DNA of 32,000 bases from Serratia marcescens (GTDB lineage Bacteria; Pseudomonadota; Gammaproteobacteria; Enterobacterales; Enterobacteriaceae): NCBI GenBank assembly GCA_015548865.1, contig JADMXW010000012.1, positions 49,045 to 81,044 on the forward strand. Direction: 5' to 3'. Below, one piece after another: positions 1,119-19,511 of the stretch. The notes below the pieces were generated by a model. The model did not search any database and was not told where the DNA came from. It saw nothing but the letters and a program-made list of their open reading frames with translations. Within the stretch, counting starts at the first letter, position 1. Every line of letters starts with the position of its first letter. The translations under genes were made by a program, and so were the position numbers.

Positions 1119-1931
1119 TTATTCCGCTTTGCCGCCTTCCAGCACCTTATCGCTGCCGAAATACTTCTCTGCCAACGTTTTTAACTGGCCGTTCTGACGC
1201 AACTCTTGCAACTTCCGGTTGAATTCTGCCAGCAACTTGTCGCCTTCCGGCGTTTTGGCAAACGGGAACGTGACTTGCTCATTGGAGATAGGGTCACCCA
1301 CCAGTTTCAGCGGCAGGTGACGTTTATTAATTTCTGCCAAGAGGATGGGACGGGAATTGACATAGCCTTGAACGCGGTTATTGATCACATCATTCATCGC
1401 CCCATCGCGGGTTTCATAGGTACGGATGGTGATGTCATTGTTGGGAAAGGCGTTGCGCAAGTTGGTTACGTGGGTTGAGCCTAAAACGCCGGATACGGTT
1501 TTACCCTTGAGATCGTCCAGTGATTGAATATCTTTGTTCTCAATGCTGGTGACGATTTGCGATGCATAGGTGAGATAGGCGTTGGTGAAATTATATTTTT
1601 TCTGTCGCTCGGTAGTTTTCACGAAATTATTGGCCACGGTATCCAGTTTCCCTGCTTCTAACTGCCCCATCAAGCCGCTGAAATCAGCGGTAGTCCAGGT
1701 AATCTGGTAACCCAGTCCGCGGGCGATCGTTTCAGCAACTTCCACGTCATAGCCCACTAGCGTGCCGTTCTCTTTATAAGAACCCGGAAAGCTTTGACCC
1801 GTGGTACCGACACGCAGCACTTTACTTTGCGTTTCTGCACTTTTGCTATTATCACAGCCGGCCAGCGTTATCGCGGCGAACAGTGTCAGTAGCGCAGCGC
1901 TCAAGTGGTGAGGCAATCGGGTTGTCATCAT
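1119..1931 (-). CDS. Amino-acid (cystine/cysteine-derivative type) ABC transporter substrate-binding lipoprotein; orphan paralog of the 5531-6340 gene
   Basis: 270-aa ORF. Signal peptide with lipobox LAGC. Extensive identity by eye to the 5531-6340 product (VLRVG.TGQS, TADFSGLMGQLEA.KLDTVAN, TYETRDGAMND, GYVNSRPILLAEINKR). Confidence 0.85.
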   Translation of the reverse strand: MMTTRLPHHLSAALLTLFAAITLAGCDNSKSAETQSKVLRVGTTGQSFPGSYKENGTLVGYDVEVAETIARGLGYQITWTTADFSGLMGQLEAGKLDTVANNFVKTTERQKKYNFTNAYLTYASQIVTSIENKDIQSLDDLKGKTVSGVLGSTHVTNLRNAFPNNDITIRTYETRDGAMNDVINNRVQGYVNSRPILLAEINKRHLPLKLVGDPISNEQVTFPFAKTPEGDKLLAEFNRKLQELRQNGQLKTLAEKYFGSDKVLEGGKAE

Positions 1932-2229
1932 GGGACTCCTGTCTGAATTTGCCTGGTTTAAAACGACATTGAGTTAAAAAGATAGGGCAACACGCTCATC
2001 AGCCCTGGGGGCAATGGCAGGCAAACGACAGTGGGATGCGCATTGAAGGAGAGTGAGGGAGTGTTGTTTGTTCTGCTGACTATATCATTCAAAATTAAAG
2101 GGAATTTATATCATCACGTTATATCTTATGACCATTCGATCGGTTACAACGCGTTGGTGGGCTTTTACTATTGCTCCTTGGTGCTTGTGTCTGTGAGTCA
2201 GTACAGCGTAGAGAAATCAAGGAATTGTC

Positions 2230-3303
2230 GTGTTTGCCATAAAATCCCCCGGTGCGTATCACCACCATCTTGGCCTGCTTTCTCGTGTGGGTGAGCTAAT
2301 TGTACCGTTTTCACGCCATATCGCCGTGTTGACCAGTCCACGCGCCTGGGCGGTAGTTGAGCAGGCACTCTCTACCAGTCTGGCGCAGTCTGGCGTTCAG
2401 TTTGATGTATACCTGCTAGAAGGCGAATGTACGCGCGAGGCGATTGCACGATATCAGCGTGAAATAGCGCAGCGCAACGTGCATTTTGTTCTCGGTGTTG
2501 GCGGCGGGCGCGTGATGGATTGTGCCAAAGCGGTTGCTGATGGGCTGGATAATGGCCAGGTAGCCACGTTGCCGACGATTGCTGCCACCTGTGCGGCCTG
2601 GTCCCCGATCAGCATTCTGTATGATGAGCAGGGCGGACATCAAGGGACGCTGCCGTTGCAACATATGCCGGTGATGGTGTTGGTGGACAGTGAGGTGATT
2701 GCGCGTAGCGATGTACGCTATCTGAAAGCGGGCATTGTCGATGCACTTGCCAAATGGTATGAATTTCAACCCTATCTGGCGAAGAACGGAGATAATTTGG
2801 CGCTGAGCCTCAAGGTTCAGGTGGCGACACTTGCGCGTGATACCTTTGTACAGTGGGGCGAACAGGCTCTGAGAGATAATGCCGAACAGCGGGTGACTGT
2901 TGCGCTGCAAAAGGTGATTGATGCCAATATCGCGCTGGCTGGATTGGCAAACAGCATGCGCGATGATTCTCCTTCCCCAGGCGTGGCCCATGCGATTCAT
3001 AATCGTATGACGCATGTTCCTGAACTGCATGACTGGTTGCACGGTGAGAAAGTGGGTTACGGCTTGCGGGTGCAGTCGTTAGTGGCGCGCGGCGACGGAT
3101 CGGTCGATCCCGATTTGTTGGCGCAGTTGCAGTGCTATGATGCCCCCGAGCGCTTGCCGGTGGAGGCAATGCGCTATGCTGAACTGGCCAATACGCTGTC
3201 TTTAACCTTTAAATTCCCCGCGGCCAGTGCCGCGCTTCTACCGTTTTCGCTAGCGCCAGAGGCGATTCGCGATGCGGTGTTGACAACGCAGTACAGCAAG
3301 TGA
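2230..3303 (+). CDS. Iron-containing alcohol dehydrogenase family oxidoreductase (glycerol dehydrogenase / YbdH-HcxA-like)
   Basis: 357-aa ORF with GTG start preceded by AAGGA. Motifs GVGGGRVMDCAKA, PTIAATCAAWSP, AG.VDALAKWYE, AHAIHN and HGEKVGYG match my recollection of GldA/YbdH-type enzymes. Confidence 0.8.
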   Translation: MFAIKSPGAYHHHLGLLSRVGELIVPFSRHIAVLTSPRAWAVVEQALSTSLAQSGVQFDVYLLEGECTREAIARYQREIAQRNVHFVLGVGGGRVMDCAKAVADGLDNGQVATLPTIAATCAAWSPISILYDEQGGHQGTLPLQHMPVMVLVDSEVIARSDVRYLKAGIVDALAKWYEFQPYLAKNGDNLALSLKVQVATLARDTFVQWGEQALRDNAEQRVTVALQKVIDANIALAGLANSMRDDSPSPGVAHAIHNRMTHVPELHDWLHGEKVGYGLRVQSLVARGDGSVDPDLLAQLQCYDAPERLPVEAMRYAELANTLSLTFKFPAASAALLPFSLAPEAIRDAVLTTQYSK

Positions 3304-3380
3304 TGCTTTTTTATGGAGTGTGATGTACATCAATATAGCGTTACGTCAGGATGTATGGTAAACGATCTATCTTCTGAATA

Positions 3381-3507
3381 TATACCCGTCATACTTCAAG
3401 TTGCTGGTGCGTTGGCTGCGTTCGCTCACCCGAATCACTTACCTGAGTAAGCTCATCGGGATTCGCGCACTTGCCGCCTTCCTGCAACTCGAATTATTTA
3501 GGGTATA
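3381..3507. repeat. ERIC/IRU element, canonical 127-bp form
   Basis: Termini TATACCCGTCATACTTCAAGTTGC ... GCAACTCGAATTATTTAGGGTATA. The core CGCTCACCCGAATCACTTACCTGAGTAAGCTCATCGGGATTC is the reverse complement of the ERIC1R/ERIC2 primer region of the consensus. Confidence 0.9.
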
Positions 3508-3613
3508 AGATAGATCCAGAAGATATATAGGGGCCAATTTGTCGCATGCTATGTTCCCAAGATTAGAACGACGACAAAAATCCCGCCTGACACATCCAAC
3601 GAACGAGTAAGCT

Positions 3614-4978
3614 ATGGCATCACATCTCATTGATTTTCTCCTAATAGGGAATAACTTTGGCACGCCCGAAATGCGCGCTGTCTGGTCAGAACATAACCGC
3701 CTGACAAAACAAGTTGACGTTGAAATCGCGCTGGCGTTAGCCGAAGGCGAACTAGGGGTGATCCCCGCCGACGCCGCACAAACTATTGCCGCAAAAGCGG
3801 ATGCGAGCGCACTGAACGTGGAAGAGATCGCGCAGGATGCGGTCCGTATGAAACATTCCCTGATGCCCACGATTACCGCGATTCAAAAGCAGTGCGGTGA
3901 GGCGGGCGAATATATTCATTATGGTGTTACCACGCAAGATATCGTTGATACCGCTACGGTGCTGCAATTACAGCAAGCTTTTGCCATTGTGGAACGTGAC
4001 ACGCAGTTATTGGCTGTAGAGTTGAAGCGACTGGCGAAGCAGTACCAATATACGCCGATGACTGGGCGTACTCACGGTATGCAGGCGTTGCCAACCACGT
4101 TTGGTTTTAAATTGGCAGTATGGTTGGATGAGTTTGTTCGCCATCTGGAACGTCTGAAAGAGATTAAAGCTCGCGTATTGGTGGGTAACGTCAACGGGGC
4201 GATTGGTACCTATGCATCGTTTGGCGAACTGGGGCCGCAAATTGAGCGCCTGACGCTCGACAAATTAGGGCTGGGTACGCCGAACATCGGCTGGCAGTCT
4301 GCGCGCGATCGTTTCTCTGAATATGCCTCCGTGGTGGTGTTGATAAGCGGTACGCTGGGCAAGATCGGTAATGAGCTCTATAACCTGATGCGCACGGAAA
4401 TCAACGAGGTTGAAGAGCCGTTCTCGGCGGGAAAAATAGGCTCCACCACCATGCCGCACAAGCGTAATCCGGCGGCATTGGAAGGGTTGGCCAGTTTGAC
4501 TGCACCCATTTTTAAAAGCGCATCGCTGATTCATGAATCTATGAAAGTAGAACATGAACGTGACGCCATGAGCTGGCGTGCAGAGTGGATTGCTTTGCCG
4601 GAAGTGAACATTTATCTCTCCGCTCAATTGCAGAATGCACTGGGTATCCTGCGCGGTATGTCGGTGAATGAAAAGCAGATGCTTGCGAATCTGGAACTGC
4701 AGAACGGCTTGCTGTTGTCTGAGAAGGTGATGTTTGAAATTGGCAAACGTATGGGTAAACAAACTGCACACCACCTGGTGTATGAGTGCTCCATGAAGGC
4801 GTTTGAACAGAATCGTCACTTTAAAGATGTGCTGCTGGAAGATCCGGTGTTGTCGGCGCAGGTGACCTCTCAGGAACTCGACGCGTGGCTGAACCCAGTC
4901 AACTATTTAGGCTGTGCTCCGCAGAAAGTGGATGAAGTTATTCGTTATGCCGACAATTCTGGCCTGCTGCCAGCGTAA
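3614..4978 (+). CDS. Aspartase/fumarase-superfamily lyase (adenylosuccinate-lyase-like); candidate S-(2-succino) lyase acting on N-acetyl-2SC
   Basis: 454-aa ORF with the fumarate-lyase signature GSTTMPHKRNP. It heads a cluster with yxeL/M/N/O/P-like genes (context inference). Confidence 0.85.
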   Translation: MASHLIDFLLIGNNFGTPEMRAVWSEHNRLTKQVDVEIALALAEGELGVIPADAAQTIAAKADASALNVEEIAQDAVRMKHSLMPTITAIQKQCGEAGEYIHYGVTTQDIVDTATVLQLQQAFAIVERDTQLLAVELKRLAKQYQYTPMTGRTHGMQALPTTFGFKLAVWLDEFVRHLERLKEIKARVLVGNVNGAIGTYASFGELGPQIERLTLDKLGLGTPNIGWQSARDRFSEYASVVVLISGTLGKIGNELYNLMRTEINEVEEPFSAGKIGSTTMPHKRNPAALEGLASLTAPIFKSASLIHESMKVEHERDAMSWRAEWIALPEVNIYLSAQLQNALGILRGMSVNEKQMLANLELQNGLLLSEKVMFEIGKRMGKQTAHHLVYECSMKAFEQNRHFKDVLLEDPVLSAQVTSQELDAWLNPVNYLGCAPQKVDEVIRYADNSGLLPA

Positions 4979-4991
4979 GTGAGCATCAAAC

Positions 4992-5519
4992 ATGAGTACG
5001 GTTTTTCGCCAGCTCACGCTGGAAGATGACGAAGCCTTTCTGGCGTTGGCGTTGGCGGCCTATGAACCAATTCGCCAATTGGGCATTCACTTTGCCGCGG
5101 CTGAGGCGGATATCGATATGGTGCGTCGTCATATTACGCGCCACGGTGTTTATGCGCTTGAAAAAGACGGCGTTATGGTGTCGTCTTTTAGCATCCGTTA
5201 CCCCTGGGGACCGGAGCCTGGTCCGTATGGTTTACCGCATTTGGGGTGGTTTGCCACTCATCCAGACTACAAAGGGCAGGGATTTGGCCGCCAGATGATG
5301 CAGTGGCTTGAGGAAACGGTGCTGATCGGGCAACTCAAAGCGCCTGCAGTTTCTCTCGGCACGGCGCAAAGCCACCCCTGGCTAATCAATATGTATAAGC
5401 ATTACGGTTTTAACGAAGTCGGGCAGGCGAATCTGGGTAAAGGCCACCTGACGATTTATATGGAAAAAGTGTTGAACCAGGATGGTTATCACCAGTGGAA
5501 GAAGAAAAACTCCCAATGA
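4992..5519 (+). CDS. GNAT family N-acetyltransferase (YxeL-like role inferred)
   Basis: 175-aa ORF starting 13 nt after the lyase stop. It has a GNAT acetyl-CoA motif region (YKGQGFGRQMMQWLEE). Confidence 0.8.
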   Translation: MSTVFRQLTLEDDEAFLALALAAYEPIRQLGIHFAAAEADIDMVRRHITRHGVYALEKDGVMVSSFSIRYPWGPEPGPYGLPHLGWFATHPDYKGQGFGRQMMQWLEETVLIGQLKAPAVSLGTAQSHPWLINMYKHYGFNEVGQANLGKGHLTIYMEKVLNQDGYHQWKKKNSQ

Positions 5520-5530
5520 GAGGCATGAAC

Positions 5531-6340
5531 ATGATAATGAAAAAACTGACTTTGTCTGCGTTAGCGCTTACCACTGCCTTTCTGATGGCTGGCTGTGATT
5601 CTCAGGATAAAAAAGCGGCGGCAGGCGGAGAAGCAAGTACGGTGCTGCGCGTCGGCTCTACCGGACAAAGCTACCCGAGCGGTTTTAAACAAGATAATAA
5701 GCTGGTGGGTTTTGACGTTGAAGTGACGGAAGCCATCGCGAAAGATCTGAATTATAAAATCGAGTGGGTTACCGCCGACTTTAGCGGCCTGATGGGGCAG
5801 TTGGAAGCGAACAAACTCGATACCGTTGCCAACGTCGTGGCGATTACGCCGGCGCGCAAAGAGAAGTATAACTTTGCCGATGTCTATAGCTACTACGGTA
5901 GCCAGATTGTCACGCAAAAAGATAATACCGATATCAATACATTGGATGATCTGAAGGGCAAAACCGTGGCGGGCGTATTAGGCTCTAACCATGTGAATAA
6001 CCTGAAGAAAGCTTTTGCTGACGGTAGTGTGACCATCCGTACCTATGAAACCCGCGATGGTGCAATGAATGATGCGTTGTCCAAGCGCGTGGAAGGTTAT
6101 GTGAACTCCCGTCCGATCCTGTTGGCAGAGATCAACAAGCGTAACCTGCCGTTCAAACTGGTTGGCGATCCGCTGGTGATCGAGGAAGTCAGCTTCCCGT
6201 TCCACAAAGATGAAAAAGGCGACAAACTGCGCGAGCAGTTCAATGCCGAGCTGGCGAAAATGCGCGCTGATGGCCGTCTGAAAGATCTCTCCGTGAAATA
6301 TTTCGGTGAGGACATCACGACCGCGCCACACGCACACTAA
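5531..6340 (+). CDS. Amino-acid ABC transporter substrate-binding lipoprotein (YxeM/TcyJ-like)
   Basis: Lipobox LMAGC. I prefer the ATG at 5531 because GAGAGG lies 7 nt upstream. In-frame alternatives are at 5516, 5525 and 5537. The track's start at 5495 overlaps the GNAT gene. Confidence 0.85.
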   Translation: MIMKKLTLSALALTTAFLMAGCDSQDKKAAAGGEASTVLRVGSTGQSYPSGFKQDNKLVGFDVEVTEAIAKDLNYKIEWVTADFSGLMGQLEANKLDTVANVVAITPARKEKYNFADVYSYYGSQIVTQKDNTDINTLDDLKGKTVAGVLGSNHVNNLKKAFADGSVTIRTYETRDGAMNDALSKRVEGYVNSRPILLAEINKRNLPFKLVGDPLVIEEVSFPFHKDEKGDKLREQFNAELAKMRADGRLKDLSVKYFGEDITTAPHAH

Positions 6341-6363
6341 CAGACGCGCTTTTTGTCATCTCT

Positions 6364-6391
6364 CTTCCACCGGTGCTTGCGCCGGTGGAAG
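6364..6391 (+). promoter_or_regulatory. Intercistronic stem-loop between the binding-protein and permease genes
   Basis: Perfect 10-bp stem CTTCCACCGG / CCGGTGGAAG with 8-nt loop TGCTTGCG and no T-run. The 3' arm contains the GGTGGAAG Shine-Dalgarno for the ATG at 6397. Confidence 0.6.
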
Positions 6392-6396
6392 TATTA

Positions 6397-7080
6397 ATGG
6401 TACTGCTCATGAATATCGATTTTGCTTACCTGCTGAAGGTGTTTCCTCAGGTTTTGCTCTATTTACCGACCACGCTGTTGTTAGCCGTGGTATCCATGAT
6501 TTTCGCCATGATACTGGGTCTGATGCTAGCGCTGCTGCGGGAAAGCAAGATCACGGTATTGGTGAAGGTGATTGAGTTTTATATCTCGCTGTTTCGTGGC
6601 ATTCCGTCACTGGTTCAATTGTTTATCATCTACTTCGGTTTGCCACAGCTTTTCCCGGCGCTGAGCGACCTGAGCGCGATGTCGGCAGCCATTATCGGTT
6701 TTAGTCTGAAAACCTCGGCGTACATGGCGGAAATTTTCCGCGCTGCGCTGGCCTCTGTCGATTGGGGGCAAACGGAAGCAGGGCTGTCAATTGGTATGAA
6801 CCGTTCGCAGATTTATCGTCGTATCGTGCTGCCTCAGGCGATGCTCAATGCGTTGCCAGCAACAGGGAATACCTTTATCTCTCTGATAAAAGACACCTCG
6901 GTGGCCTTTGCGCTTGGCGTATCCGAACTGTTTGCTGAAGGCAAGATGATCGCTGCGGAATCGCTGCGTTTCTTCGAAACCTTCCTGGTGGTAGGGCTGA
7001 TTTATTGGCTGGTCATCATCGTTTATTCCAGACTGCAAAGCTGGCTGGAAAAGAAACTGAACCACTCATTACAGCGCTAA
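6397..7080 (+). CDS. Amino-acid ABC transporter permease (YxeN/TcyL-like)
   Basis: Polar amino-acid permease features: multiple TM segments and an EAA-like loop (EAGLSIGMNRSQIYRRIVLPQA). Start 6397 chosen by RBS spacing; ATG 6409 (MNIDF...) is an alternative. Confidence 0.85.
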   Translation: MVLLMNIDFAYLLKVFPQVLLYLPTTLLLAVVSMIFAMILGLMLALLRESKITVLVKVIEFYISLFRGIPSLVQLFIIYFGLPQLFPALSDLSAMSAAIIGFSLKTSAYMAEIFRAALASVDWGQTEAGLSIGMNRSQIYRRIVLPQAMLNALPATGNTFISLIKDTSVAFALGVSELFAEGKMIAAESLRFFETFLVVGLIYWLVIIVYSRLQSWLEKKLNHSLQR

Positions 7081-7092
7081 GGAGACGCCGCC

Positions 7093-7854
7093 ATGATCAG
7101 TATAAAAAACCTTTCAAAACGCTTTGGCGACAAAGTGGTGCTGGACAATATCAGTCTGGATATCGAACAGGGCGAAGTGGTGGCTATTATAGGCCCCTCA
7201 GGGTCGGGTAAATCCACCTTGCTGCGTTGCCTCAACCTGTTGGAAAAACCGGAATCTGGCACGATTGAAATTGGCGATCGCGTGCTGGATACGCGCCGTT
7301 ACAGCACCAAGGAAGCCTACGCGCTGCGTCAGCAGACGGCGATGGTGTTCCAGAACTACAATCTGTTTAAAAACAAAACTGCGCTGGAAAACATCACTGA
7401 GGCGTTGATCGTGGTGAAAAAAATGTCGAAGCAGCAAGCGCAGGACATTGGGCTCAAACTGATCGAGCAGGTCGGCCTATTGCCGGAAGCCCATCAGTAT
7501 CCGGTGACCTTGTCCGGGGGACAGCAGCAGCGCGTGGGCATTGCTCGGGCTCTGGCTGTGGACCCAAAAGCCATTCTGTTCGATGAACCCACCTCGGCGC
7601 TGGATCCTGAACGTGTGCATGAAGTGCTGCAAGTCATTCAGAATCTGGCAAAAAACAACACGACCATGGTTATCGTTACCCATGAGATGCAGTTTGCCAA
7701 AGAGGTTGCTGACCGGGTAATTTTCATGGCCGACGGGCATATCGTTGAGCAGGGACCAGCGGAACAGGTGATCAGCTTCTCCGATAACCCTCAGACGCAG
7801 CGCTTCCTGCGTCAGATGACCAAGATGCCGGAACATACCGAATACGACATCTGA
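7093..7854 (+). CDS. Amino-acid ABC transporter ATP-binding protein (YxeO/TcyN-like)
   Basis: Walker A GPSGSGKST, Q-loop, signature LSGGQQQRV, Walker B ILFDEPTSALD, H-loop VTHEM. RBS AAGGAG upstream. Confidence 0.92.
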   Translation: MISIKNLSKRFGDKVVLDNISLDIEQGEVVAIIGPSGSGKSTLLRCLNLLEKPESGTIEIGDRVLDTRRYSTKEAYALRQQTAMVFQNYNLFKNKTALENITEALIVVKKMSKQQAQDIGLKLIEQVGLLPEAHQYPVTLSGGQQQRVGIARALAVDPKAILFDEPTSALDPERVHEVLQVIQNLAKNNTTMVIVTHEMQFAKEVADRVIFMADGHIVEQGPAEQVISFSDNPQTQRFLRQMTKMPEHTEYDI

Positions 7855-7865
7855 TTATGCGGTGA

Positions 7866-8015
7866 TATACCCTGAATAATTCGCGTTGCAGGACAAAACG
7901 TTAACGTTTGAGCAGCGCTTGCGCTGGTCCTTTAAGGCAAGGCTTGTTGATGCGTCTCGTAACGCGGCAAACAAGCGCCGCCTGTGCATCTGTAACATGA
8001 AGTATGACGGGTACA
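7866..8015. repeat. ERIC-derived element, opposite orientation, with the central core replaced
   Basis: ERIC termini TATACCCTGAATAATTCGCGTTGCAGGA ... GAAGTATGACGGGTACA. The interior shares the segment GGACAAAACGTTAACGTTTGAGCAGCGCTTGCGCTGGTCC with the reverse complement of an insert in the 9360-9614 copy. Confidence 0.7.
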
Positions 8016-8098
8016 TAAGCTATTTAGAATGATAACACCCTGCGCGTTGTGGGCTCATCCTGCAGCGCTAAGCACGGACAGTGTGGAGAAGATACATC

Positions 8099-9256
8099 GT
8101 GAAAACAGCACCTCAACATGCGCCTTTAGCGCAATTTATTCAGGCGTTTCGGCATGATTTGCACCAGAACCCTGAATTATCAAACCAGGAATTTGAAACA
8201 ACCAAGAAGATTCGCGCCGTGTTGGAAAAGGAAGGTATTCGCATTCTGGACCTTCCGTTGAAAACCGGTCTGATCGCCGAAGTTGGGGGATTGCAGGAAG
8301 GTCCGCTGGTTATCGTGCGTTCTGATATTGATGCGTTGCCGATAGAGGAAGAGTCCGGCGTTGAGTTCACTTCTCAGCGCCAAGGTGTGATGCACGCTTG
8401 TGGTCATGATTTTCACTCTTCAGCCGCACTGGGTGCCGCCATTTTGTTGAAAGGGATCGAGTCTGAGTTAAAAGGCACGGTGCGCATTCTGTTTCAGGCG
8501 GCAGAAGAAACGGGGTTGGGTGCGCCAGAAGTGATTGCGACCGGTGCGCTGGATAACGCCGTGGCCATCTTTGGTATCCACAACGACCCCACGCTGCCCG
8601 TTGGCGTCGTGGGGGGCAAGGATGGTGCGTTGACAGCGGGTGTCGACCGTTTTGAAATCAAGATTGCCGCCAAAGGGTGTCATGCAGCTAAGCCCCATGA
8701 AGGTAACGATCCGATTATCATTCTGGGCCAGTTGATCAGTGCTGTGCAGACGATTATTAGCCGCACGGTGCCAGCGGATGATACCGCTGTGGTGTCAATC
8801 ACTCAGGTACACAGCGGCAGCACCTGGAACGTTATCCCAGATACTGCTTATGTGGAAGGCACTGTGCGTACTTTCAGCCAGGCGGCGCGCGATCTGATTG
8901 AACAGCGTTTCCGCCAGATTGTGGCGGGAATTGCCAGCACTTTTGGCGCTGAGCTGGAGTTTATTTGGCACGCGGGTCCGCCATCAGTGGTCAATACGCC
9001 TGAATGGGTTGATTTTGCCCTGCGTATTGCTGACGAAGAAGGCTTTGAAGCGCGCCGCGTGGATGCCAGTCCGATAGGGGAAGATTTTGCTTTCTATCAG
9101 CAGAAACTGCCGGGCACGTTTATGATGGTAGGCTCAGGCGGGCCTTACGCATTGCACCATCCTAAATTCCGTGTTGATGACAGCGCTTTATTTCCTACCG
9201 CACATTACCTCCATCAACTGGCGAAACAGAGCCTGGAACAACTGGCCTCTCGCTGA
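8099..9256 (+). CDS. M20 family amidohydrolase (YxeP-like N-acyl-amino-acid / N-acetylcysteine deacetylase inferred)
   Basis: M20D-type motifs (MHACGHDFH, AEE.G.GA). GTG 8099 preferred, with GGAGA 9 nt upstream. The track's GTG 8081 is an in-frame alternative. Confidence 0.85.
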   Translation: MKTAPQHAPLAQFIQAFRHDLHQNPELSNQEFETTKKIRAVLEKEGIRILDLPLKTGLIAEVGGLQEGPLVIVRSDIDALPIEEESGVEFTSQRQGVMHACGHDFHSSAALGAAILLKGIESELKGTVRILFQAAEETGLGAPEVIATGALDNAVAIFGIHNDPTLPVGVVGGKDGALTAGVDRFEIKIAAKGCHAAKPHEGNDPIIILGQLISAVQTIISRTVPADDTAVVSITQVHSGSTWNVIPDTAYVEGTVRTFSQAARDLIEQRFRQIVAGIASTFGAELEFIWHAGPPSVVNTPEWVDFALRIADEEGFEARRVDASPIGEDFAFYQQKLPGTFMMVGSGGPYALHHPKFRVDDSALFPTAHYLHQLAKQSLEQLASR

Positions 9257-9359: not shown

Positions 9360-9614
9360 TATACCCGTCATACTTCAAGTTGCAGGTGCGTTGGCTGCAC
9401 TCATTATTCGGCCCATCCCTGGACCTCACCTCTTACGAGGCCGCCGCATGCGGCGTTCAAATTTGTTCCAGACAAATTTGTCACCCGAATCACTTACCTG
9501 AGTAAGCTCACCGGGATTGATGAATCTCATCCCTGATATTCACCTTACGGGCCAGCGCAGGTGCTGTTCAAAACGTAAACGTTTTGTCCTGCAACTCAAA
9601 TTATTTAGGGTATA
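9360..9614. repeat. ERIC element carrying two internal insertions (255 bp)
   Basis: Alignment by eye to the 3381-3507 copy shows conserved termini and core, interrupted by about 80-bp and about 68-bp inserts. Each insert contains its own palindromes (GCCGCATGCGGC; CAAATTTGT..ACAAATTTG). Confidence 0.85.
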
Positions 9615-9770
9615 AATACCTTTCATTTCTCTATTGATATTTCTCTTTCATAGGTTAAACACAAGTTAAACGATGTGTCATTCATCATGCCAATTTATGT
9701 CTGTGGAATGAACCAATAATGCAATTCTATGCCGAAGTGTAAGAAATCTGTATTGAAAGGAATCGAAGTG

Positions 9771-10118
9771 AAAATTAAATTTATATTGTTATTTGCCACT
9801 CTCATGCTCTCTGGTTGCACGACGCAATGGGTTAAAAATAGCGCAAATGCTGAGGATTTTACGATATCAAAAGGTGCCTGCGAAGCATTGAGTGAAGACA
9901 AATATCCGGTGAAAAATGAGGTGGCACAAAGAACACAGTACACATCCTACTATTTGCCATGTGGAAAGAGAGACGACTGTAAAAACGAAAAATATATTTC
10001 TGGGCGACGACCGGAAATACAAAGCTACGTGATGGATGTGAATAAAGATAGTCGTCAAGGGCTTTTCAATCAGTGCATGAAATTGAGAGGGTGGTCATCG
10101 GAGACAAAGTGGTTCTAA
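9771..10118 (+). CDS. Small Cys-rich lipoprotein of unknown function
   Basis: Lipobox MLSGC. GTG 9771 preceded by AAGGA at 6 nt; the track start 9729 is an in-frame alternative. AT-rich codon usage unlike its neighbours. Confidence 0.6.
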   Translation, partial: KIKFILLFATLMLSGCTTQWVKNSANAEDFTISKGACEALSEDKYPVKNEVAQRTQYTSYYLPCGKRDDCKNEKYISGRRPEIQSYVMDVNKDSRQGLFNQCMKLRGWSSETKWF

Positions 10119-10146
10119 TAGGAAAATAATATTTAAAAGGAATAAT

Positions 10147-11691
10147 ATGAATAGCCTGCAACGTTTTCTTTTTCTATATAGTTTGTTGTGCTTAAGCCCC
10201 GCTTTTGCCATGAATGCTCCGCCATCTATGCCAGAGCATTCTCAGGCGCAGAGTGATGTTGCCTTGAGCGAAGGTAAAGTGAGGATTAACCAGGTCAATC
10301 TTGACTATCATACCGAAGCGGGCAATCTGGCGTTGAATACAGACGATCCTGACGAACCTGTCACCACATTGTCCTATGTTGCCTACTTCAAGATGATGGA
10401 TAAGAAAGAGAAGAAGGACAATCGACCGATCACTTTTATCTATAATGGTGGCCCCGGTTCCTCTTCTGTTTGGCTGCATATGGGCGGGTTGGGGCCGAAG
10501 CGGGTAGTCGTCAGCACGCCGGACAAGCACGCTTTACCGCCTTATCCTGTTATCGACAACGCCTATTCTCTGCTTGATGTCAGCGATCTGGTGTTTATCG
10601 ATGCGCCCGGTACCGGATTTGGGCAGTTTATTAGCCATGCTGCTAATGCTCAGGAGCGGCAGTCGCAAAAGTATCAAAAGGCGAATGAAGCTTACAGTAT
10701 TAATGGGGATGCTCAGGCATTTGCCCAGTTTATCACTCAGTTCCTGAGCCGCTATCAGCGCTGGAATACCCCGCGATACCTGCTGGGTGAGAGTTATGGT
10801 ACTACCCGCACGGTTGCATTGGCTGACACACTGAAAACGCGTTATAACGTGGATGTTAACGGCATTATTCTGTTGTCGCAGTTTCTGAGTCGAGACATTG
10901 ATATCGATTTTCCGGAAGCCAATCCCGGCATCGACCAACCTTATTACCTGGCACTACCAACCTATGCGGCTATCGCCCACTATTATCTGCGTCAGCAGCA
11001 GAGCAATGGGCCTCTGGACAATTTGCTACGTGAAGTTGAGCAGTTTTCTCTTGGTCCTTATGCCCAGGCGCTTGCTCAAGGAGGCGTGTTGCCAGAAAAG
11101 CAGAAAGGTGAGGTGGCTGAACAACTTGCCCGCTATACAGGGATACCCGCGCGGGAGTGGCTTAATGCTGATTTACGCCTTTCAGGACCGCTGTTCGTCA
11201 AAAAACTGCTGACAGAGCAGGGTGAAACTATCAGCCGCTTTGATGGTCGCTATCGGGGTGCATCGCTAGATAAAACAGCCTCCTGGGGCGAATACGATCC
11301 TGTTATGACAATCGGTTCAGGGTTTATTTCTGCATACCGAGATTATCTGGCACAGGTATTGAACGTGAAGACGGTACAAGACTATGTTTCTGACTCGAAT
11401 GCGATTTCTCATTGGGATATGGCACCAAAAAACCGTTCTTTTAATCTGCTGCCTGAGCTGTCTCAAACCATGAAGATGAATCCACGCATGAAAGTCATGG
11501 TGCTCGGCGGTATTTACGATCTGGCGACACCTTATTTTGTCGCACAATATCATCTCAATCATCTTTCTTTGCCCGAAAAGCTCCGCGCTAATTTGCAGTT
11601 CCTCAGGTATGAATCAGGACATTTACCGTATCTTGATGAAAGGTCCCTGCAACGGCTACATCAGGATCTTAGTGCCTTCATTGCGGGATAA
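10147..11691 (+). CDS. Secreted peptidase S10 family serine carboxypeptidase
   Basis: 514-aa ORF with an N-terminal signal peptide (LSPAFA). Catalytic Ser motif GESYG and C-terminal His motif ESGHLPY. RBS AAGGAA upstream. Confidence 0.8.
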   Translation: MNSLQRFLFLYSLLCLSPAFAMNAPPSMPEHSQAQSDVALSEGKVRINQVNLDYHTEAGNLALNTDDPDEPVTTLSYVAYFKMMDKKEKKDNRPITFIYNGGPGSSSVWLHMGGLGPKRVVVSTPDKHALPPYPVIDNAYSLLDVSDLVFIDAPGTGFGQFISHAANAQERQSQKYQKANEAYSINGDAQAFAQFITQFLSRYQRWNTPRYLLGESYGTTRTVALADTLKTRYNVDVNGIILLSQFLSRDIDIDFPEANPGIDQPYYLALPTYAAIAHYYLRQQQSNGPLDNLLREVEQFSLGPYAQALAQGGVLPEKQKGEVAEQLARYTGIPAREWLNADLRLSGPLFVKKLLTEQGETISRFDGRYRGASLDKTASWGEYDPVMTIGSGFISAYRDYLAQVLNVKTVQDYVSDSNAISHWDMAPKNRSFNLLPELSQTMKMNPRMKVMVLGGIYDLATPYFVAQYHLNHLSLPEKLRANLQFLRYESGHLPYLDERSLQRLHQDLSAFIAG

Positions 11692-12217: not shown

Positions 12218-12862
<645 letters not shown>

Positions 12863-12898: not shown

Positions 12899-13903
12899 AT
12901 GGAAAACATTGCGCTCATTGGTATCGATCTGGGTAAAAACTCTTTCCATATTCATTGCCAGGATCGTCGCGGGAAGGCTGTTTACCGTAAAAAATTTACC
13001 CGGCCAAAGTTGATCGAATTTTTGGCGACATGCCCCGCTACAACCATCGCAATGGAAGCCTGTGGCGGTTCTCACTTTATGGCACGCAAGTTGGAAGAGT
13101 TGGGGCATTCCCCAAAGCTGATATCACCACAATTTGTCCGCCCGTTCGTTAAAAGCAATAAAAACGACTTTGTCGACGCCGAAGCTATTTGTGAAGCTGC
13201 ATCGCGTCCGTCTATGCGTTTTGTGCAGCCCAGAACGGAATCTCAGCAGGCAATGCGGGCTCTGCATCGTGTCCGTGAATCCCTGGTTCAGGATAAGGTA
13301 AAAACAACCAATCAAATGCATGCTTTTCTGCTGGAATTTGGCATTAGCGTTCCCCGAGGAGCTGCCGTTATTAGCCGACTGAGTACCATTCTTGAGGATA
13401 ATAGTTTGCCTCTTTACCTCAGCCAGTTATTGCTGAAATTACAACAGCATTATCACTATCTTGTTGAGCAGATTAAAGATTTGGAATCCCAGTTGAAACG
13501 AAAGTTGGACGAAGATGAGGTTGGACAGCGCTTGCTGAGCATTCCCTGCGTCGGAACACTGACAGCGAGTACTATTTCAACTGAGATTGGCGACGGGAAG
13601 CAGTACGCCAGCAGCCGTGACTTTGCGGCGGCAACAGGGCTTGTACCTCGGCAGTACAGCACGGGAGGTAGGACGACATTGCTGGGAATTAGTAAGCGAG
13701 GTAATAAAAAGATCCGAACTTTGTTGGTTCAGTGTGCCAGGGTATTCATACAAAAACTGGAACACCAGTCTGGCAAATTGGCCGATTGGGTCAGGGATTT
13801 ACTGTGCCGGAAAAGCAACTTTGTCGTCACTTGTGCTCTGGCAAACAAGCTGGCCAGAATAGCCTGGGCCCTAACGGCACGACAGCAAACTTATGTAGCA
13901 TAA
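12899..13903 (+). CDS. IS110 family DEDD transposase/recombinase
   Basis: 334 aa. N-terminal RuvC-like DEDD motifs (IGIDLGK, MEACGG, FVDAEAI). C-terminal Transposase_20-like region (SIPCVGTLTAS..., LVPRQYSTGG, ISKRGNKKIR). RBS GGAGA 6 nt upstream. Confidence 0.9.
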   Translation: MENIALIGIDLGKNSFHIHCQDRRGKAVYRKKFTRPKLIEFLATCPATTIAMEACGGSHFMARKLEELGHSPKLISPQFVRPFVKSNKNDFVDAEAICEAASRPSMRFVQPRTESQQAMRALHRVRESLVQDKVKTTNQMHAFLLEFGISVPRGAAVISRLSTILEDNSLPLYLSQLLLKLQQHYHYLVEQIKDLESQLKRKLDEDEVGQRLLSIPCVGTLTASTISTEIGDGKQYASSRDFAAATGLVPRQYSTGGRTTLLGISKRGNKKIRTLLVQCARVFIQKLEHQSGKLADWVRDLLCRKSNFVVTCALANKLARIAWALTARQQTYVA

Positions 13904-15028
<1,125 letters not shown>

Positions 15029-15115: not shown

Positions 15116-16306
15116 CTAAGACGGTGCTTGTAATGTGAGTAAAAGCCCTTCACGACGCATTTGAGCCGCTTGTTCCGGCAATCGCAGGTGATCAAAGGCA
15201 TCGGCACGCCAAGCGTAATCAAAGGCATCCGGGCGCAAAGCCAACGCAGCGGCAAATGCATCGCTTGCCTGCTGCCATTCCCCCTGCTTCAGCATTAACT
15301 GCCCCAGCGTACTGTGCAGTAATGCGCTGTCACCATGTTGTTTAAGCAACTGGCGCAATACCTTTTCCAAGGGGGCGGGCTCGCCTGCGTCTAAGCGTGG
15401 CATCAGTAGCACCAATCGCTCATCGTAGTGGTGTTTCAAGCCGTCAATGACGATTTGCTGAGCGGTTTGGTGATCGTCACACGCGATCAGGTGCTCCGCC
15501 ATAGCCACCTGTAATGGCAAGTCTTGCCGTACTTTACGGCTTTGCTCCTTCCACCACTGCTTCAGACCCTCGCTGCCGCCTTCTGCCATAGCCTGTTCCA
15601 TCAGGCCGAGTAGGGCGGATTGACGCAACGCTTCCAGCTCCTCCTCGGTTCGGATCTTGGTTTTGCGCATGGCTGGCAGAATATCCAACAGTGCGCCGTA
15701 GGCGTGAGTACGTTGGAACGCCAGTTCAGCCAACCGCAACACTTCAGGGTGGCGTGGTGCGTATTCCAGCAGGCGATCGACGCCGTGGCGTGCGGCGTGG
15801 TCCTCGTTACGGGCCAGTTGGATACGCACACGGGTAATGTCTACCGGCAATTGGTCAGTATCAGCCATTTCGGCTGCTCGCTCCAGATACTGTCGGGTAC
15901 GGAACTCGTCACCACGTTGCTGAGCAGCTTCGGCAGCCAGCAGATAATTCACGACTGGTTGTTCTGCATGATCGGCATTGCGTGTCAGCAGTTTTTCTAC
16001 TTGGAGATAATCGCCTTCAGCCAGTTTGAGCAGGGCTGCTTTGGTCTGTTTTCTGGCGCGCGTACGTTTGCGTCCCAGAAACCAGCCGCGGGTGCGCGCA
16101 CCGGTATGAAACACGCGGCGCAGCAGCCACTCTAGCGAAAACAGCACGATCAGTAACAGGACCAGCATGATCGCCAGTCCTGTAACGCTGGTTTCGATAT
16201 TGTAGGTGTCGGTTTGCACCAGTACATAACCCTGACGCCCGGCGAGCATTGGGCCGAGCACCACGCCAGCAATAAGGATCAGGAACAAGAACAGCACTTT
16301 CAGCAT
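15116..16306 (-). CDS. hemY: HemY protein (TPR-containing inner-membrane protein of the hem operon)
   Basis: 396 aa. N-terminal TM segments and a TPR-like C-terminal region. Last gene of the hemCDXY arrangement. Confidence 0.9.
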   Translation of the reverse strand: MLKVLFLFLILIAGVVLGPMLAGRQGYVLVQTDTYNIETSVTGLAIMLVLLLIVLFSLEWLLRRVFHTGARTRGWFLGRKRTRARKQTKAALLKLAEGDYLQVEKLLTRNADHAEQPVVNYLLAAEAAQQRGDEFRTRQYLERAAEMADTDQLPVDITRVRIQLARNEDHAARHGVDRLLEYAPRHPEVLRLAELAFQRTHAYGALLDILPAMRKTKIRTEEELEALRQSALLGLMEQAMAEGGSEGLKQWWKEQSRKVRQDLPLQVAMAEHLIACDDHQTAQQIVIDGLKHHYDERLVLLMPRLDAGEPAPLEKVLRQLLKQHGDSALLHSTLGQLMLKQGEWQQASDAFAAALALRPDAFDYAWRADAFDHLRLPEQAAQMRREGLLLTLQAPS

Positions 16307-16308
16307 GA

Positions 16309-17454
16309 TCAGCCCTCCTGTTGCTGCGCAGGCGATTGTGCCAGCAAATTACGCACTCGCGTTTGCATTAATTTTTCCAGCAGCGGCTGGCTTTGCAGCG
16401 TAGTAGGAACATCCAGAGAGACGGGCTGCTGGCTTAAGCTATCAACCTGTTCTAAAAAGGCTTTTGTGCCTGGATCACTGGTATCAAAATAGGCACGAAC
16501 CCAGGTGGATACCGCTTCCAGTGACTGTTTATATGTCTCGTTCTGATGACGCGGTACGGCTTGGGCGGCGGTTAGCAGGCGTGCACGTATGTTTTCGCGC
16601 AGGTAGAAATCCTGATTCGGCGCCAGCAGCGGCTCTGCATTGCTGTCGCGACGGCGAATGGTAATAAAGTCAGACATAAAGTTGTGCCAGCTTTTACTCA
16701 GGTTCTGCCGCCATTCGCTGAGGGTGGCTGAAAGCTCGCCGTCAGTTTCATCCATAGGTGCGTCATCGTCCTGGGTGTTATCCGCTAACCGTAGATTGTC
16801 GACTTGATCGGTTAGCTGATTTACACGCAGGATGATACCGTCGAAGTCTACCTGGCTGACGGAGGCCAACGCACTGATATCATTGGCGATGGCTCGGCGC
16901 AGTTCAAGCAGGCTAGGGTCGTTCATGTCAGCCAGACTGCCATCGGCGCTTTTCAGGAGCGCACCCGCGGTGAGTACGTCTTTGTCACTCCAGAGTTTAC
17001 GCCCAGCCAGTTTGACCAGAAAATCTGCCTGTGCCAGTAGCCACGTGCTGGTGTCATGATTGGAAAGGGCCGCCAGTTTCTGGCTGAGTTCGCTGGATTC
17101 GCGGGTGACCACGCTGAGCTGGTGCGCGGTGCTGTCCTGCCACTGTTTTTGTTGCGCAAGTGCTGCTTGCCACACCGTTTTTTCCTGCTGATACTGCTGC
17201 TGTAGCGTCGTTAACTCACCCTTCAACTGCGCCACGGATGCGGCGTTTTGCTTCTCCTGCTGCTGTCCGAGGTAGTAAACACTTCCGCTCAGCAGCAATG
17301 CGATAACAATAGCAAGTCCACCCAGCACGCGACCATTTCCCGCATTATCCCGGCGCGGCACATCTTGTGACGTGGCGTCGGATTGTGAAAATGTGGCGTC
17401 AGGGCGCTCCGTCACCGTTTCCGATGGGGTTGAAGGGGTATGGTGTTCCGTCAT
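16309..17454 (-). CDS. hemX: HemX protein (often annotated as putative uroporphyrinogen-III C-methyltransferase)
   Basis: 381 aa with one TM segment and a Q-rich coiled region. Lies between hemD and hemY. Confidence 0.88.
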
Positions 17455-17500
17455 AATGGGTCATCCCATGGTCTGGTTTGTTGTACGGTTGGCTGTACGG

Positions 17501-18241
17501 TCAGGATAACAAACGCACAAGCGCGTCATTATCGGCATTGTCCGCGATAAGCACGTCACGCCAGCCAAGCTGACGTGCTTCATGCGCCAGCCGTTCGCTA
17601 ACAACGATAACCTGGCAGTGGAGCAACCAGGATTCGCGATAATAATTTGGCACCAGCGCATACAGCTGGTGCAGCATATCGCCGCTGGTTATCACCAAAC
17701 GATCGATACCAAGCTGCTGCCAATGTCGGCTCTGTTCCGGCCCATCATAATAGACCGGACTACGCTGATAACATTCACAATAACTAACCTGTGCTCCGCG
17801 TTCTGCGAGTGTTGTGGCCAGCAGTTCTCTTCCGCCATTCCCTCGTAATAATAGCGCGTTTTTGCCGCTAATATTTTGTAATTCTGGTAGTTGCAGCAGC
17901 ATTTCGCTGGTTTCACGTTCTGGTGGGAAGGCAACGGCGCGAGAGGTAACCTGATGCAGCGCCAGTGCGGTGGTACGTCCGATGGCGTAATAGACCGGGG
18001 CGGAGGGCCAGGGTAACCTTGCTTGAGCGAGTGCGGCGGCGGCATAGCGCACGGCATGTTGAGACAGCGCGATAAGAATGTCGCTCTCTCGCAATACTGC
18101 CAGTCGCGCTGGCAGTGAGGACAATTCACCGCCGGGAGAAAAATCGATCAGCGGGCTGTGGCAGGCTGGATGGCCGAGTTTGCGCAGCCTCTCCACCAAC
18201 GCCTCCCCCGCAGGTGACGGGCGGGTCACCAGAATGGTCAT
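17501..18241 (-). CDS. hemD: Uroporphyrinogen-III synthase
   Basis: 246 aa starting [13 protein letters not shown]. The ATGA start overlaps the hemC stop. Confidence 0.9.
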
Positions 18242-19176
18242 GAACCAGCGCCCTGATAAACGGCGTGCAGAATAGCGTCTGCGCCGTTGGCTAACAGCTC
18301 TTCAGCCAGATCGATACCCATGCGTTTCGCCTCGCTGGCAGGGCCGATGCGCTCACCGCGAATCATCTTGCTGCCATCCGGTGCGCCAACCAAGGCTCTT
18401 AGCCAGAGTTGCCCCGCATTGAGTTCAGCATAACTGCCTATCGGGACCTGGCAGCCACCGTCGAGGCGGAGATTCATGGCGCGTTCAGCCAGAACACGGC
18501 AGGCGGTTTGTTCATGGTTAAGCGGTGCCAGCAGTTCGCGCACGCGGGCGTCATTTTCTCGGCATTCGATACCAATCGCGCCCTGACCCACGGCGGGCAG
18601 CGACTCTTCCGGGGTGAGCGGCGTGCGGATGCGTTCTGACAGATTCAGACGTGACAGCCCGGCAACGGCCAAAATAATAGCGTCATAGTCGCCGTTGTCT
18701 AGCTTGCTTAGGCGAGTTCCAACGTTGCCGCGCAAATCGCGGATAATCAGATCGGGGCGGCGGGCGCGTAATTGGCATTGGCGGCGCAAACTGGAGGTGC
18801 CGACGCAGCTTCCGAGCGGAAGATCGGCCACGCTGGCATACTGATTCGACACAAAGGCATCGCGCGGATCGTCACGCTCACAAATGGTATACAGACCCAG
18901 GCCATCGGGAAACGATACCGGTACATCCTTCATGGAGTGAACGGCGATATCCGCGCGGTCTTCCAACAAAGCACGCTCCAACTCTTTTACAAACAATCCC
19001 TTGCCACCAACTTTCGCCAGCGGCGTATCCAGGATGATGTCGCCGCGCGTGACCATGGGAATCAGTTCAACCTGCAAGCCCGGGTAGTACTGCTGCAACC
19101 GTTGCTGAACATATTGTGCTTGCCATAGCGCAAGTGGGCTTTGTCGGGTGGCAATTCTAAGGGTGTTGTCTACCAT
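18238..19176 (-). CDS. hemC: Hydroxymethylbilane synthase (porphobilinogen deaminase)
   Basis: Near-collinear with recalled E. coli HemC ([18 protein letters not shown]...). Start 19176 matches the E. coli N-terminus. The upstream in-frame ATG at 19197 is an alternative. Confidence 0.92.
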
Positions 19177-19393
19177 GCTTAATACCGTTTTTATCATTTA
19201 GCACCATCGTATCACTGAGGCGTGCAGGTGTCAGCGTTCCGGCGCTGAAGGTGCTGCATAGCGACAGGAAGATGCGCGTTTTCACCATAAGGTGTGAGGA
19301 TAGCGGGGTAATCATGCCAGAGAGCGAAGGGCAATAAGAGAAAGTAAGCTAATAGCAACTAACTTTCTTTAGTTTCTTTACGCTCAATGAGCA

Positions 19394-19415
19394 AGGTGTT
19401 AAATTGATCACGTTT
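19394..19415. promoter_or_regulatory. cAMP-CRP binding site in the cyaA promoter region
   Basis: TGTTA-N6-TCACG (AAGGTGTTAAATTGATCACGTT) fits TGTGA-N6-TCACA. It resembles the CRP site at E. coli cyaA P2 as I recall it. Confidence 0.65.
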
Positions 19416-19511
19416 CCAGCACTATCTTATCAGTCACTCCTCTAATTCTATTCCTGATAAGTTTGGAACACGGGGTTTTTTATAGGCACTGGGATAATCA
19501 GGCGGACCGTC

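Follow-up and report, generated by a model that had tools for sequence, protein, structure and literature searches.

The six-gene cluster at positions 3614-9256 of the window (the whole 32,000-nucleotide stretch of DNA that was analysed) very probably encodes the scm/yxe pathway in its S-(2-succino) lyase (2SL) form, by which cysteine is recovered from S-(2-succino)cysteine (2SC), an amino acid damaged by fumarate. The cluster is orthologous to a published system and belongs to a known pathway. As an earlier note on this DNA had described from the letters, it consists of six ORFs, all on the + strand, in the order lyase, GNAT acetyltransferase, binding protein, permease, ATPase and M20 amidohydrolase. 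Domains were assigned with Pfam and NCBIfam models. The first gene (3614..4978) encodes the 454-aa 2SL with Pfam domains Lyase_1 and ADSL_C, followed by a 175-aa YxeL/ScmL-type GNAT (4992..5519; Pfam GNAT), a predicted 2SC N-acetyltransferase. The transporter genes encode a YxeM-like lipoprotein substrate-binding protein (5495..6340; SBP_bac_3, cystine-binding-like) and, both in conserved positions, a YxeN-like ABC permease (6373..7080; BPD_transp_1, cystine-permease-like) and a YxeO-like ABC ATPase (7093..7854; ABC_tran, TcyN-like). The last gene (8081..9256) encodes a YxeP/ScmP-type M20 amidohydrolase (M20/TIGR01891, 355 bits), a predicted N-acetylcysteine deacetylase. Alignment with Dickeya places the probable start of the binding protein at ATG 5531, downstream of the longest-ORF start, and the M20 gene probably starts at GTG 8099, also later than its longest-ORF start and preceded by the Shine-Dalgarno sequence GGAGAAG.

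In the proposed pathway, the binding protein, permease and ATPase would take up 2SC, which the GNAT would convert with acetyl-CoA to N-acetyl-2SC. The lyase would then remove the succino group by beta-elimination to give fumarate and N-acetylcysteine, and the M20 metallohydrolase would deacetylate the latter to cysteine, for a predicted net reaction of 2SC + acetyl-CoA + H2O -> cysteine + fumarate + acetate + CoA. Two of these steps have an experimental basis elsewhere, the lyase reaction in an 87%-identical orthologue and the deacetylation in B. subtilis, where N-acetylcysteine deacetylase activity of ScmP (YxeP) has been shown (PMC12757645). The 2SL enzymes of E. italicus and D. dadantii convert N-acetyl-2SC to fumarate and N-acetylcysteine, substitute for yxeK and complement B. 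subtilis yxeK mutants (PMC9706529, Hillmann et al. 2022); this is the 2022 report to which the earlier note refers, and it says what the note states. From homology and conserved gene order we infer that the GNAT acetylates 2SC, that the transporter imports 2SC and that sulfur limitation affects expression.

Aligned without gaps, the lyase matches E0SKP1 of Dickeya dadantii 3937, a characterised 2SL listed in UniProt as 'N-acetyl-S-(2-succino)cysteine lyase', at 392 of 452 residues (87% identity). It bears the fumarate-lyase signature G276-S-T-T-M-P-H-K-R-N285 together with His154, and neither this loop nor the region around His154 differs between the two proteins. The locus shares the features of the published 2SL-type loci (PMC9706529): a lyase orthologous to a characterised 2SL, a class-I lyase gene in the place of yxeK, here the first gene of the cluster, and a contiguous set of YxeL-type GNAT, YxeMNO-type ABC transporter and YxeP-type M20 genes. 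The identity to E0SKP1 and the Dickeya gene order bear out the earlier proposal that a 2SL replaces YxeK. A genome search with the monooxygenase of locus L106 as query, rather than B. subtilis YxeK, found no close YxeK/YtnJ-type homologue, the best match having 29% identity (E 8.5e-7).

Public annotation would instead make the lyase a spare PurB or PcaB flanked by unrelated amino-acid transport and peptidase genes, a reading to which we give almost no credence. The lyase does pass the generic purB model TIGR00928 (382 bits, cut-off 326), and NCBI labels its relatives adenylosuccinate lyase or PcaB; however, it reaches only 98 bits against PRK09285 (cut-off 446) and so falls outside PurB, and the true PurB of this genome lies elsewhere (contig C44; 789 bits to PRK09285 and 496 bits to TIGR00928). 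Its scores against the PcaB models TIGR02426 (276.5, cut-off 355.75) and PRK09053 (404.5, cut-off 595) likewise place it outside PcaB, and no pca or pur genes occur among the neighbouring ORFs scanned. The 87% identity to a characterised 2SL also argues against a PurB or PcaB function, as does the tree, in which 23 cluster-linked lyases and the D. dadantii 2SL form one group (support moderate, 86/94; outgroup branches long) apart from the PurB and the PcaB-like paralogues of this genome. The clustering with PurB or PcaB that the earlier note had named as counter-evidence is therefore not observed.

The primer-encoded N-terminus of E. italicus 2SL, MGSHVIDL, fits the N-terminal motif of the family over that segment, the only one compared; the enzyme itself was absent, as judged by its primer-encoded terminal peptides, among the 120 proteins listed for a Neobacillus query. 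The D. dadantii 2SL forward primer had no exact match in 201 genomes; its published text disagrees with the E0SKP1 protein by one residue and may be garbled.

The other genes of the cluster are consistent with the same pathway. The GNAT is 49% identical over its full length to a 165-aa GNAT of Bacillus haynesii/atrophaeus and 51% identical to 'YxeL [Brevibacillus reuszeri]', so that its expected kinship with YxeL holds for YxeL-type proteins of Bacillus and Brevibacillus, the comparison set. JGI names relatives of this GNAT 'S-(2-succino)cysteine N-acetyltransferase', and Paenibacillus polymyxa P0313 carries a natural fusion of a 2SL homologue and a GNAT. The binding protein has the lipobox LMAGC and shares 81% identity with its Dickeya oryzae counterpart and 55% with that of the Neobacillus cluster. 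The suggested relationship of the M20 enzyme to YxeP was upheld: among proteins of solved structure, B. subtilis YxeP (1ysj) matches it best (E 8.5e-115; next match 2.9e-61), and it shares 91% identity with the D. oryzae protein and 46% with that of Neobacillus.

A broader role, in which the cluster salvages cysteine S-conjugates or cystine, 2SC is only one of the substrates or a minor one and the lyase mostly cleaves other small thiols in succinated form, is improbable, even though several observations point in that direction. 2SL enzymes are promiscuous and accept several small thiols (PMC9706529), and 2SC need therefore not be the sole physiological substrate. The transporter components are nearest to cystine models of the TcyJLN type, although all score under the cut-offs (binding protein, cystine-binding model; permease, cystine permease model; ATPase, TcyN model). 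In addition, the cluster repeatedly has a dehydrogenase-like gene and a further binding protein as neighbours, and in another genome homologues of the dehydrogenase adjoin a sulfonate-type ABC transporter. However, the characterised D. dadantii orthologue strongly favours N-acetyl-2SC (PMC9706529), and the cluster has both the scm/yxe gene order and the logic of acetylation, cleavage and deacetylation; we consequently favour a 2SC pathway.

The two recurrent neighbours lie upstream of the lyase. The dehydrogenase-like gene (2230..3303, +), of the glycerol-dehydrogenase family (Fe-ADH superfamily), is next to the lyase gene at 19 of the 80 related loci, spread over about ten genera, and is also found in L106, a monooxygenase-type locus (monooxygenase, GNAT, M20, MmgE/PrpD) of a Pantoea-like genome; it is not mentioned in PMC9706529. 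Homologues at E<=1e-50 occur in six of 301 sampled Enterobacterales, this genome included. Among the other five, one is in a yxe-like locus, one is beside the sulfonate-type transporter and three are more distant; L103, the only one of these three with neighbours inspected, has no sulfur-related neighbour. Strict membership of the gene in the pathway was rejected, as homologues are rare and their contexts mixed. It may lie outside the 2SC pathway, its link being to sulfur scavenging in general. The second lipoprotein binding protein (1119..1931, -) is 59% identical to the cluster's own and might serve the same permease as an additional receptor; in Sodalis, Acerihabitans and a metagenome-assembled member of the Enterobacterales (L027) its gene is on the same strand as, and directly upstream of, the lyase. 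That the two genes form an unrecognised accessory module of cysteine S-conjugate salvage loci, which might for example handle the uptake and processing of another, related organosulfur compound, is a tentative and rather doubtful suggestion.

A survey of 80 related loci found the identical six-gene order in about 45, ranging from Symbiopectobacterium to Neobacillus and including Dickeya, Pectobacterium, Brenneria, Sodalis and Pantoea, which indicates that the order is not due to chance. The Neobacillus cluster additionally carries a YxeQ-like MmgE/PrpD gene. The host genome of the window is Symbiopectobacterium or a close relative, of large size, and keeps the pathway intact. The cluster genes are under strong purifying selection (dN/dS 0.01-0.07), with values of 0.012-0.03 for the lyase against other Symbiopectobacterium copies. 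Three other Symbiopectobacterium genomes, presumed host-restricted, are losing the pathway. A tblastn comparison showed frameshifts in the transporter genes only of such lineages, and loss of the transporter with retention of the three enzymes for clearance of endogenous 2SC was considered for them. This was rejected because direct translation revealed a premature TAA at codon 118 of the L003 lyase and a premature TGA at codon 244 of the L005 M20 gene, indicating decay of the entire cluster in these lineages.

The ORFs scanned between 1 and 22 kb of the window included no helix-turn-helix gene, in agreement with the earlier remark that the cluster lacks a regulator gene, and scans for promoters and terminators returned sites no more numerous than in shuffled sequence. 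Three ERIC-like repeats lie before, inside and after the cluster as insertions in this strain only; the internal one (7866-8017), between the ATPase and M20 genes, might affect their co-expression.

The main significance of the result is for annotation, and understanding of the pathway itself is unchanged. Relatives of the lyase are named 'adenylosuccinate lyase' at NCBI, or in a few cases '3-carboxy-cis,cis-muconate cycloisomerase', and relatives of the GNAT 'GNAT family N-acetyltransferase', so that generic annotation misses the pathway as had been anticipated. The name 'adenylosuccinate lyase' is probably given because the generic TIGR00928 cut-off is passed, and it hides 2SC repair and salvage in these records, which come from Pectobacteriaceae, Orbaceae, Pasteurellaceae, Erwiniaceae and Bacillota. 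A model built specifically for 2SL would mend the naming.

Three known systems are close to the one in the window. The bacterial coenzyme M enzyme XcbD (NF052536) and PRK08937-type 'adenylosuccinate lyases' share with the window lyase a PurB/PcaB-like branch of the class-I lyase superfamily. XcbD makes a C-S bond through the addition of cysteine to an activated alkene. Of the specific NCBIfam models, these two score highest for the window lyase, which nevertheless remains under their curated cut-offs (446 bits against 600 for NF052536, and 470 against 626 for PRK08937) and has no coenzyme M gene context. The closest system is the 2SL locus of Dickeya dadantii 3937, with its 87%-identical lyase (PMC9706529). 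The same order of lyase, GNAT, binding protein, permease, ATPase and M20 genes is read in the D. oryzae and D. undicola loci, and the chromosomal surroundings in D. oryzae, adjoining hemYXD, match those of the window. The differences from Dickeya are the genus of the host, the three strain-specific ERIC-like insertions and an interval from the M20 gene to hemY that is longer by about 5.8 kb. With the B. subtilis scm system (yxeKLMNOPQ) the window cluster has in common the type of transporter and a three-step logic in which acetylation precedes C-S cleavage and deacetylation follows it, and the proteins are related through YxeP, the nearest solved relative of the M20 enzyme, and the YxeL-type GNATs at 49-51% identity. 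The window cluster, however, lacks a YxeQ (MmgE/PrpD) gene and its genome a close YxeK/YtnJ-type monooxygenase, and C-S cleavage would proceed through a lyase to fumarate, in contrast to the FMN monooxygenase YxeK of B. subtilis, which yields oxaloacetate.

ORF calling in the window recovered six co-oriented genes on the forward strand at exactly the coordinates (3614-9256) that the earlier note had assigned to a salvage cluster for S-(2-succino)cysteine (2SC). Based on Pfam and NCBIfam models these encode, in order, a class-I lyase that carries the C-terminal domain of adenylosuccinate lyases, an acetyltransferase of the GNAT family, a solute-binding protein of family 3, a permease, an ABC ATPase and an M20 amidohydrolase assigned to subfamily TIGR01891. 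For all three transporter components the nearest likeness is to the E. coli cystine system, with every score below the NCBIfam equivalog cut-off. Two genes probably start downstream of their longest-ORF starts: ATG 5531 is the likely start of the binding protein, in whose sequence an LMAGC lipobox can be read, and GTG 8099, preceded by GGAGAAG, that of the M20 gene. The cluster was said to lack a regulator gene, and a scan of neighbouring ORFs found none.

The 2022 report to which the earlier note referred was located as Hillmann et al. (J Biol Chem 2022; PMC9706529), according to which 27 of 102 yxe loci carry a class-I lyase, S-(2-succino) lyase (2SL), instead of the monooxygenase yxeK. In that study the 2SL of Dickeya dadantii (E0SKP1) and of Enterococcus italicus (E6LDH5) complemented B. 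subtilis yxeK mutants, and both enzymes converted N-acetyl-2SC to fumarate and N-acetylcysteine with a strong preference over 2SC. The window lyase is identical to E0SKP1 at 392 of 452 positions (87%) with zero gaps, including the whole fumarate-lyase signature G276-S-T-T-M-P-H-K-R-N285 and the T-H154-G region. Going by the superfamily, the signature and the H154 region are presumably catalytic. Nine Lyase_1 genes were detected in the window's own genome, comprising FumC, two AspA, ArgH, PurB, three PurB/PcaB-like proteins and the window lyase. The true PurB, on contig C44, scores 789 bits on PRK09285 (cut-off 446), and the window lyase only 98 bits. The three PurB/PcaB-like paralogues, on contigs C62, C7 and C2 (loci L096, L098 and L099), fall below every curated cut-off. 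A maximum-likelihood tree built from 30 proteins placed the 23 cluster-linked lyases, E0SKP1 among them, in a single group (support 86/94, stem length 1.12) separate from the genome's PurB, PcaB-like paralogues, ArgH, FumC and AspA, so that the grouping with PurB or PcaB named beforehand as contrary evidence did not appear; with its long outgroup branches, the tree corroborates the 2SL identity rather than deciding it.

The expectation that generic naming would hide the pathway was borne out, as NCBI gives the name 'adenylosuccinate lyase' to E0SKP1 and its relatives. E0SKP1 was recovered within a Dickeya sequence cluster that is called 'N-acetyl-S-(2-succino)cysteine lyase' in UniRef but 'adenylosuccinate lyase' at NCBI. 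The window lyase scores 382 bits on the generic purB model TIGR00928, over its 'equivalog' cut-off of 326, and matched no 2SL-specific model in NCBIfam release 20; this probably explains the public name and its systematic use among the relatives. The practical worth of the cluster lies in annotation correction.

The two partner enzymes also match YxeP and YxeL-type proteins. Among solved structures, the M20 protein comes closest to B. subtilis YxeP itself (1ysj; E 8.5e-115, residues 23-386), followed by a second at E 2.9e-61, and YxeP (ScmP) has been shown to be a specific N-acetylcysteine deacetylase (PMC12757645, 2025). A search for solved relatives of the GNAT found none. Its YxeL-type character is indicated at one remove from YxeL of B. 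subtilis 168, by 49% full-length identity to the 165-aa GNAT of the Bacillus haynesii/atrophaeus cluster and by 51% identity to a protein named 'putative N-acetyltransferase YxeL [Brevibacillus reuszeri]' at NCBI; several relatives are named 'S-(2-succino)cysteine N-acetyltransferase' by JGI and UniRef. A natural fusion of both enzymes in Paenibacillus polymyxa (P0313; 612 aa, in a cluster of eight member sequences), with 60% identity to the window proteins in its 2SL-type lyase part and 49% in its YxeL-type GNAT part, is an independent sign from sequence which suggests that lyase and GNAT act together. In the proposed pathway, 2SC would be imported, N-acetylated by the GNAT, as homology predicts, and cleaved by 2SL through beta-elimination to fumarate and N-acetylcysteine, as shown for the 87%-identical orthologue, after which the M20 enzyme would deacetylate the product, as shown for ScmP. 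No close homologue of a YxeK/YtnJ-type monooxygenase was found in the genome, in keeping with the inverse distribution reported for 2SL and yxeK (PMC9706529).

A tblastn comparison of the window proteins covered 80 loci holding a lyase homologue. Upstream of the cluster lie a second lipoprotein binding protein (1119-1931), 59% identical to that of the cluster, and a glycerol-dehydrogenase-family gene (2230-3303) whose best solved relatives are glycerol dehydrogenases (best E 3e-45). These two genes (1119-3303) recur near 2SL loci in about ten genera, adjoining the lyase in variable orientation at 19 (dehydrogenase) and about 12 (binding protein) of the 80 loci. Dehydrogenase homologues were also found at a lyase-free, monooxygenase-type yxe-like locus of a Pantoea-like genome (L106; 54-55% identity), together with a YtnJ-like flavin monooxygenase, a GNAT (53% identical), an M20 protein (70% identical) and MmgE/PrpD, and as the last gene of a sulfonate-type ABC operon in another genome (L107). 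Because of these contexts, the gene seems to be linked to sulfur scavenging in general, and it may or may not take part in 2SC breakdown.

The closest relatives of the lyase are found in Symbiopectobacterium genomes (95-98% identity), followed by Brenneria, Pectobacterium, Samsonia and Dickeya lyases (87-90%); the window's genome has a size of 5.39 Mb and a completeness of 100%. Its cluster copy is intact, and comparison with other intact Symbiopectobacterium copies gives dN/dS values of 0.012-0.03 (lyase), 0.03-0.07 (GNAT) and 0.01-0.02 (M20 gene). In three further Symbiopectobacterium genomes, which from their record names we take to be host-restricted lineages, the cluster is broken in three different ways: a nonsense codon at lyase position 118 and two ATPase frameshifts (L003), a frameshift in the binding protein (L004), and a nonsense codon at M20 position 244 with frameshifts in permease and ATPase (L005). 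The frameshifts may be assembly errors.

The cluster is flanked by an Arg-His-Leu-Pro tRNA cluster (510-1021) on one side and by hemYXDC-cyaA (15116-22067) on the other, and the window holds an accessory block in this interval. In Dickeya oryzae, hemY is within about 1 kb of the 2SC cluster. Three intergenic repeats, which we take to be ERIC-like from the ERIC consensus, lie before the lyase (3379-3510), in the ATPase/M20 gap (7866-8017) and after the M20 gene (9360-9615). At least 40 relatives of the 132-nt copy occur in the genome (40 scored of 258 candidates), and other Symbiopectobacterium loci are without the three insertions at the corresponding sites. A low-GC islet (9729-11691; about 44%), confined to Symbiopectobacterium among the 80 loci, holds an ORF of 129 aa and encodes a 514-aa protein that partially matches the S10 serine carboxypeptidases. 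Beyond it, an IS110-family transposase gene (12899-13903) interrupts a family-1 glycosyl hydrolase gene, leaving a C-terminal (12218-12796) and an N-terminal (14085-14984) piece.

Across the 80 loci, the six-gene order is kept in Symbiopectobacterium, Brenneria, Pectobacterium, Samsonia, Dickeya, Sodalis, Acerihabitans, Pantoea and Neobacillus/Bacillus. The M20 gene is about 1.4 kb farther along in Pasteurellaceae and does not adjoin in Gilliamella; in Rahnella and Klebsiella michiganensis, lyase-GNAT-M20 is accompanied by another ABC system. The Neobacillus locus carries an extra MmgE/PrpD gene 3' of M20 and has the yxeK-L-M-N-O-P-Q layout of B. subtilis, with the lyase at the yxeK position. 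The interpretation of the window cluster as lyase-type 2SC salvage is supported, and since the system is orthologous to one already published and characterised by experiment, the cluster is already known.
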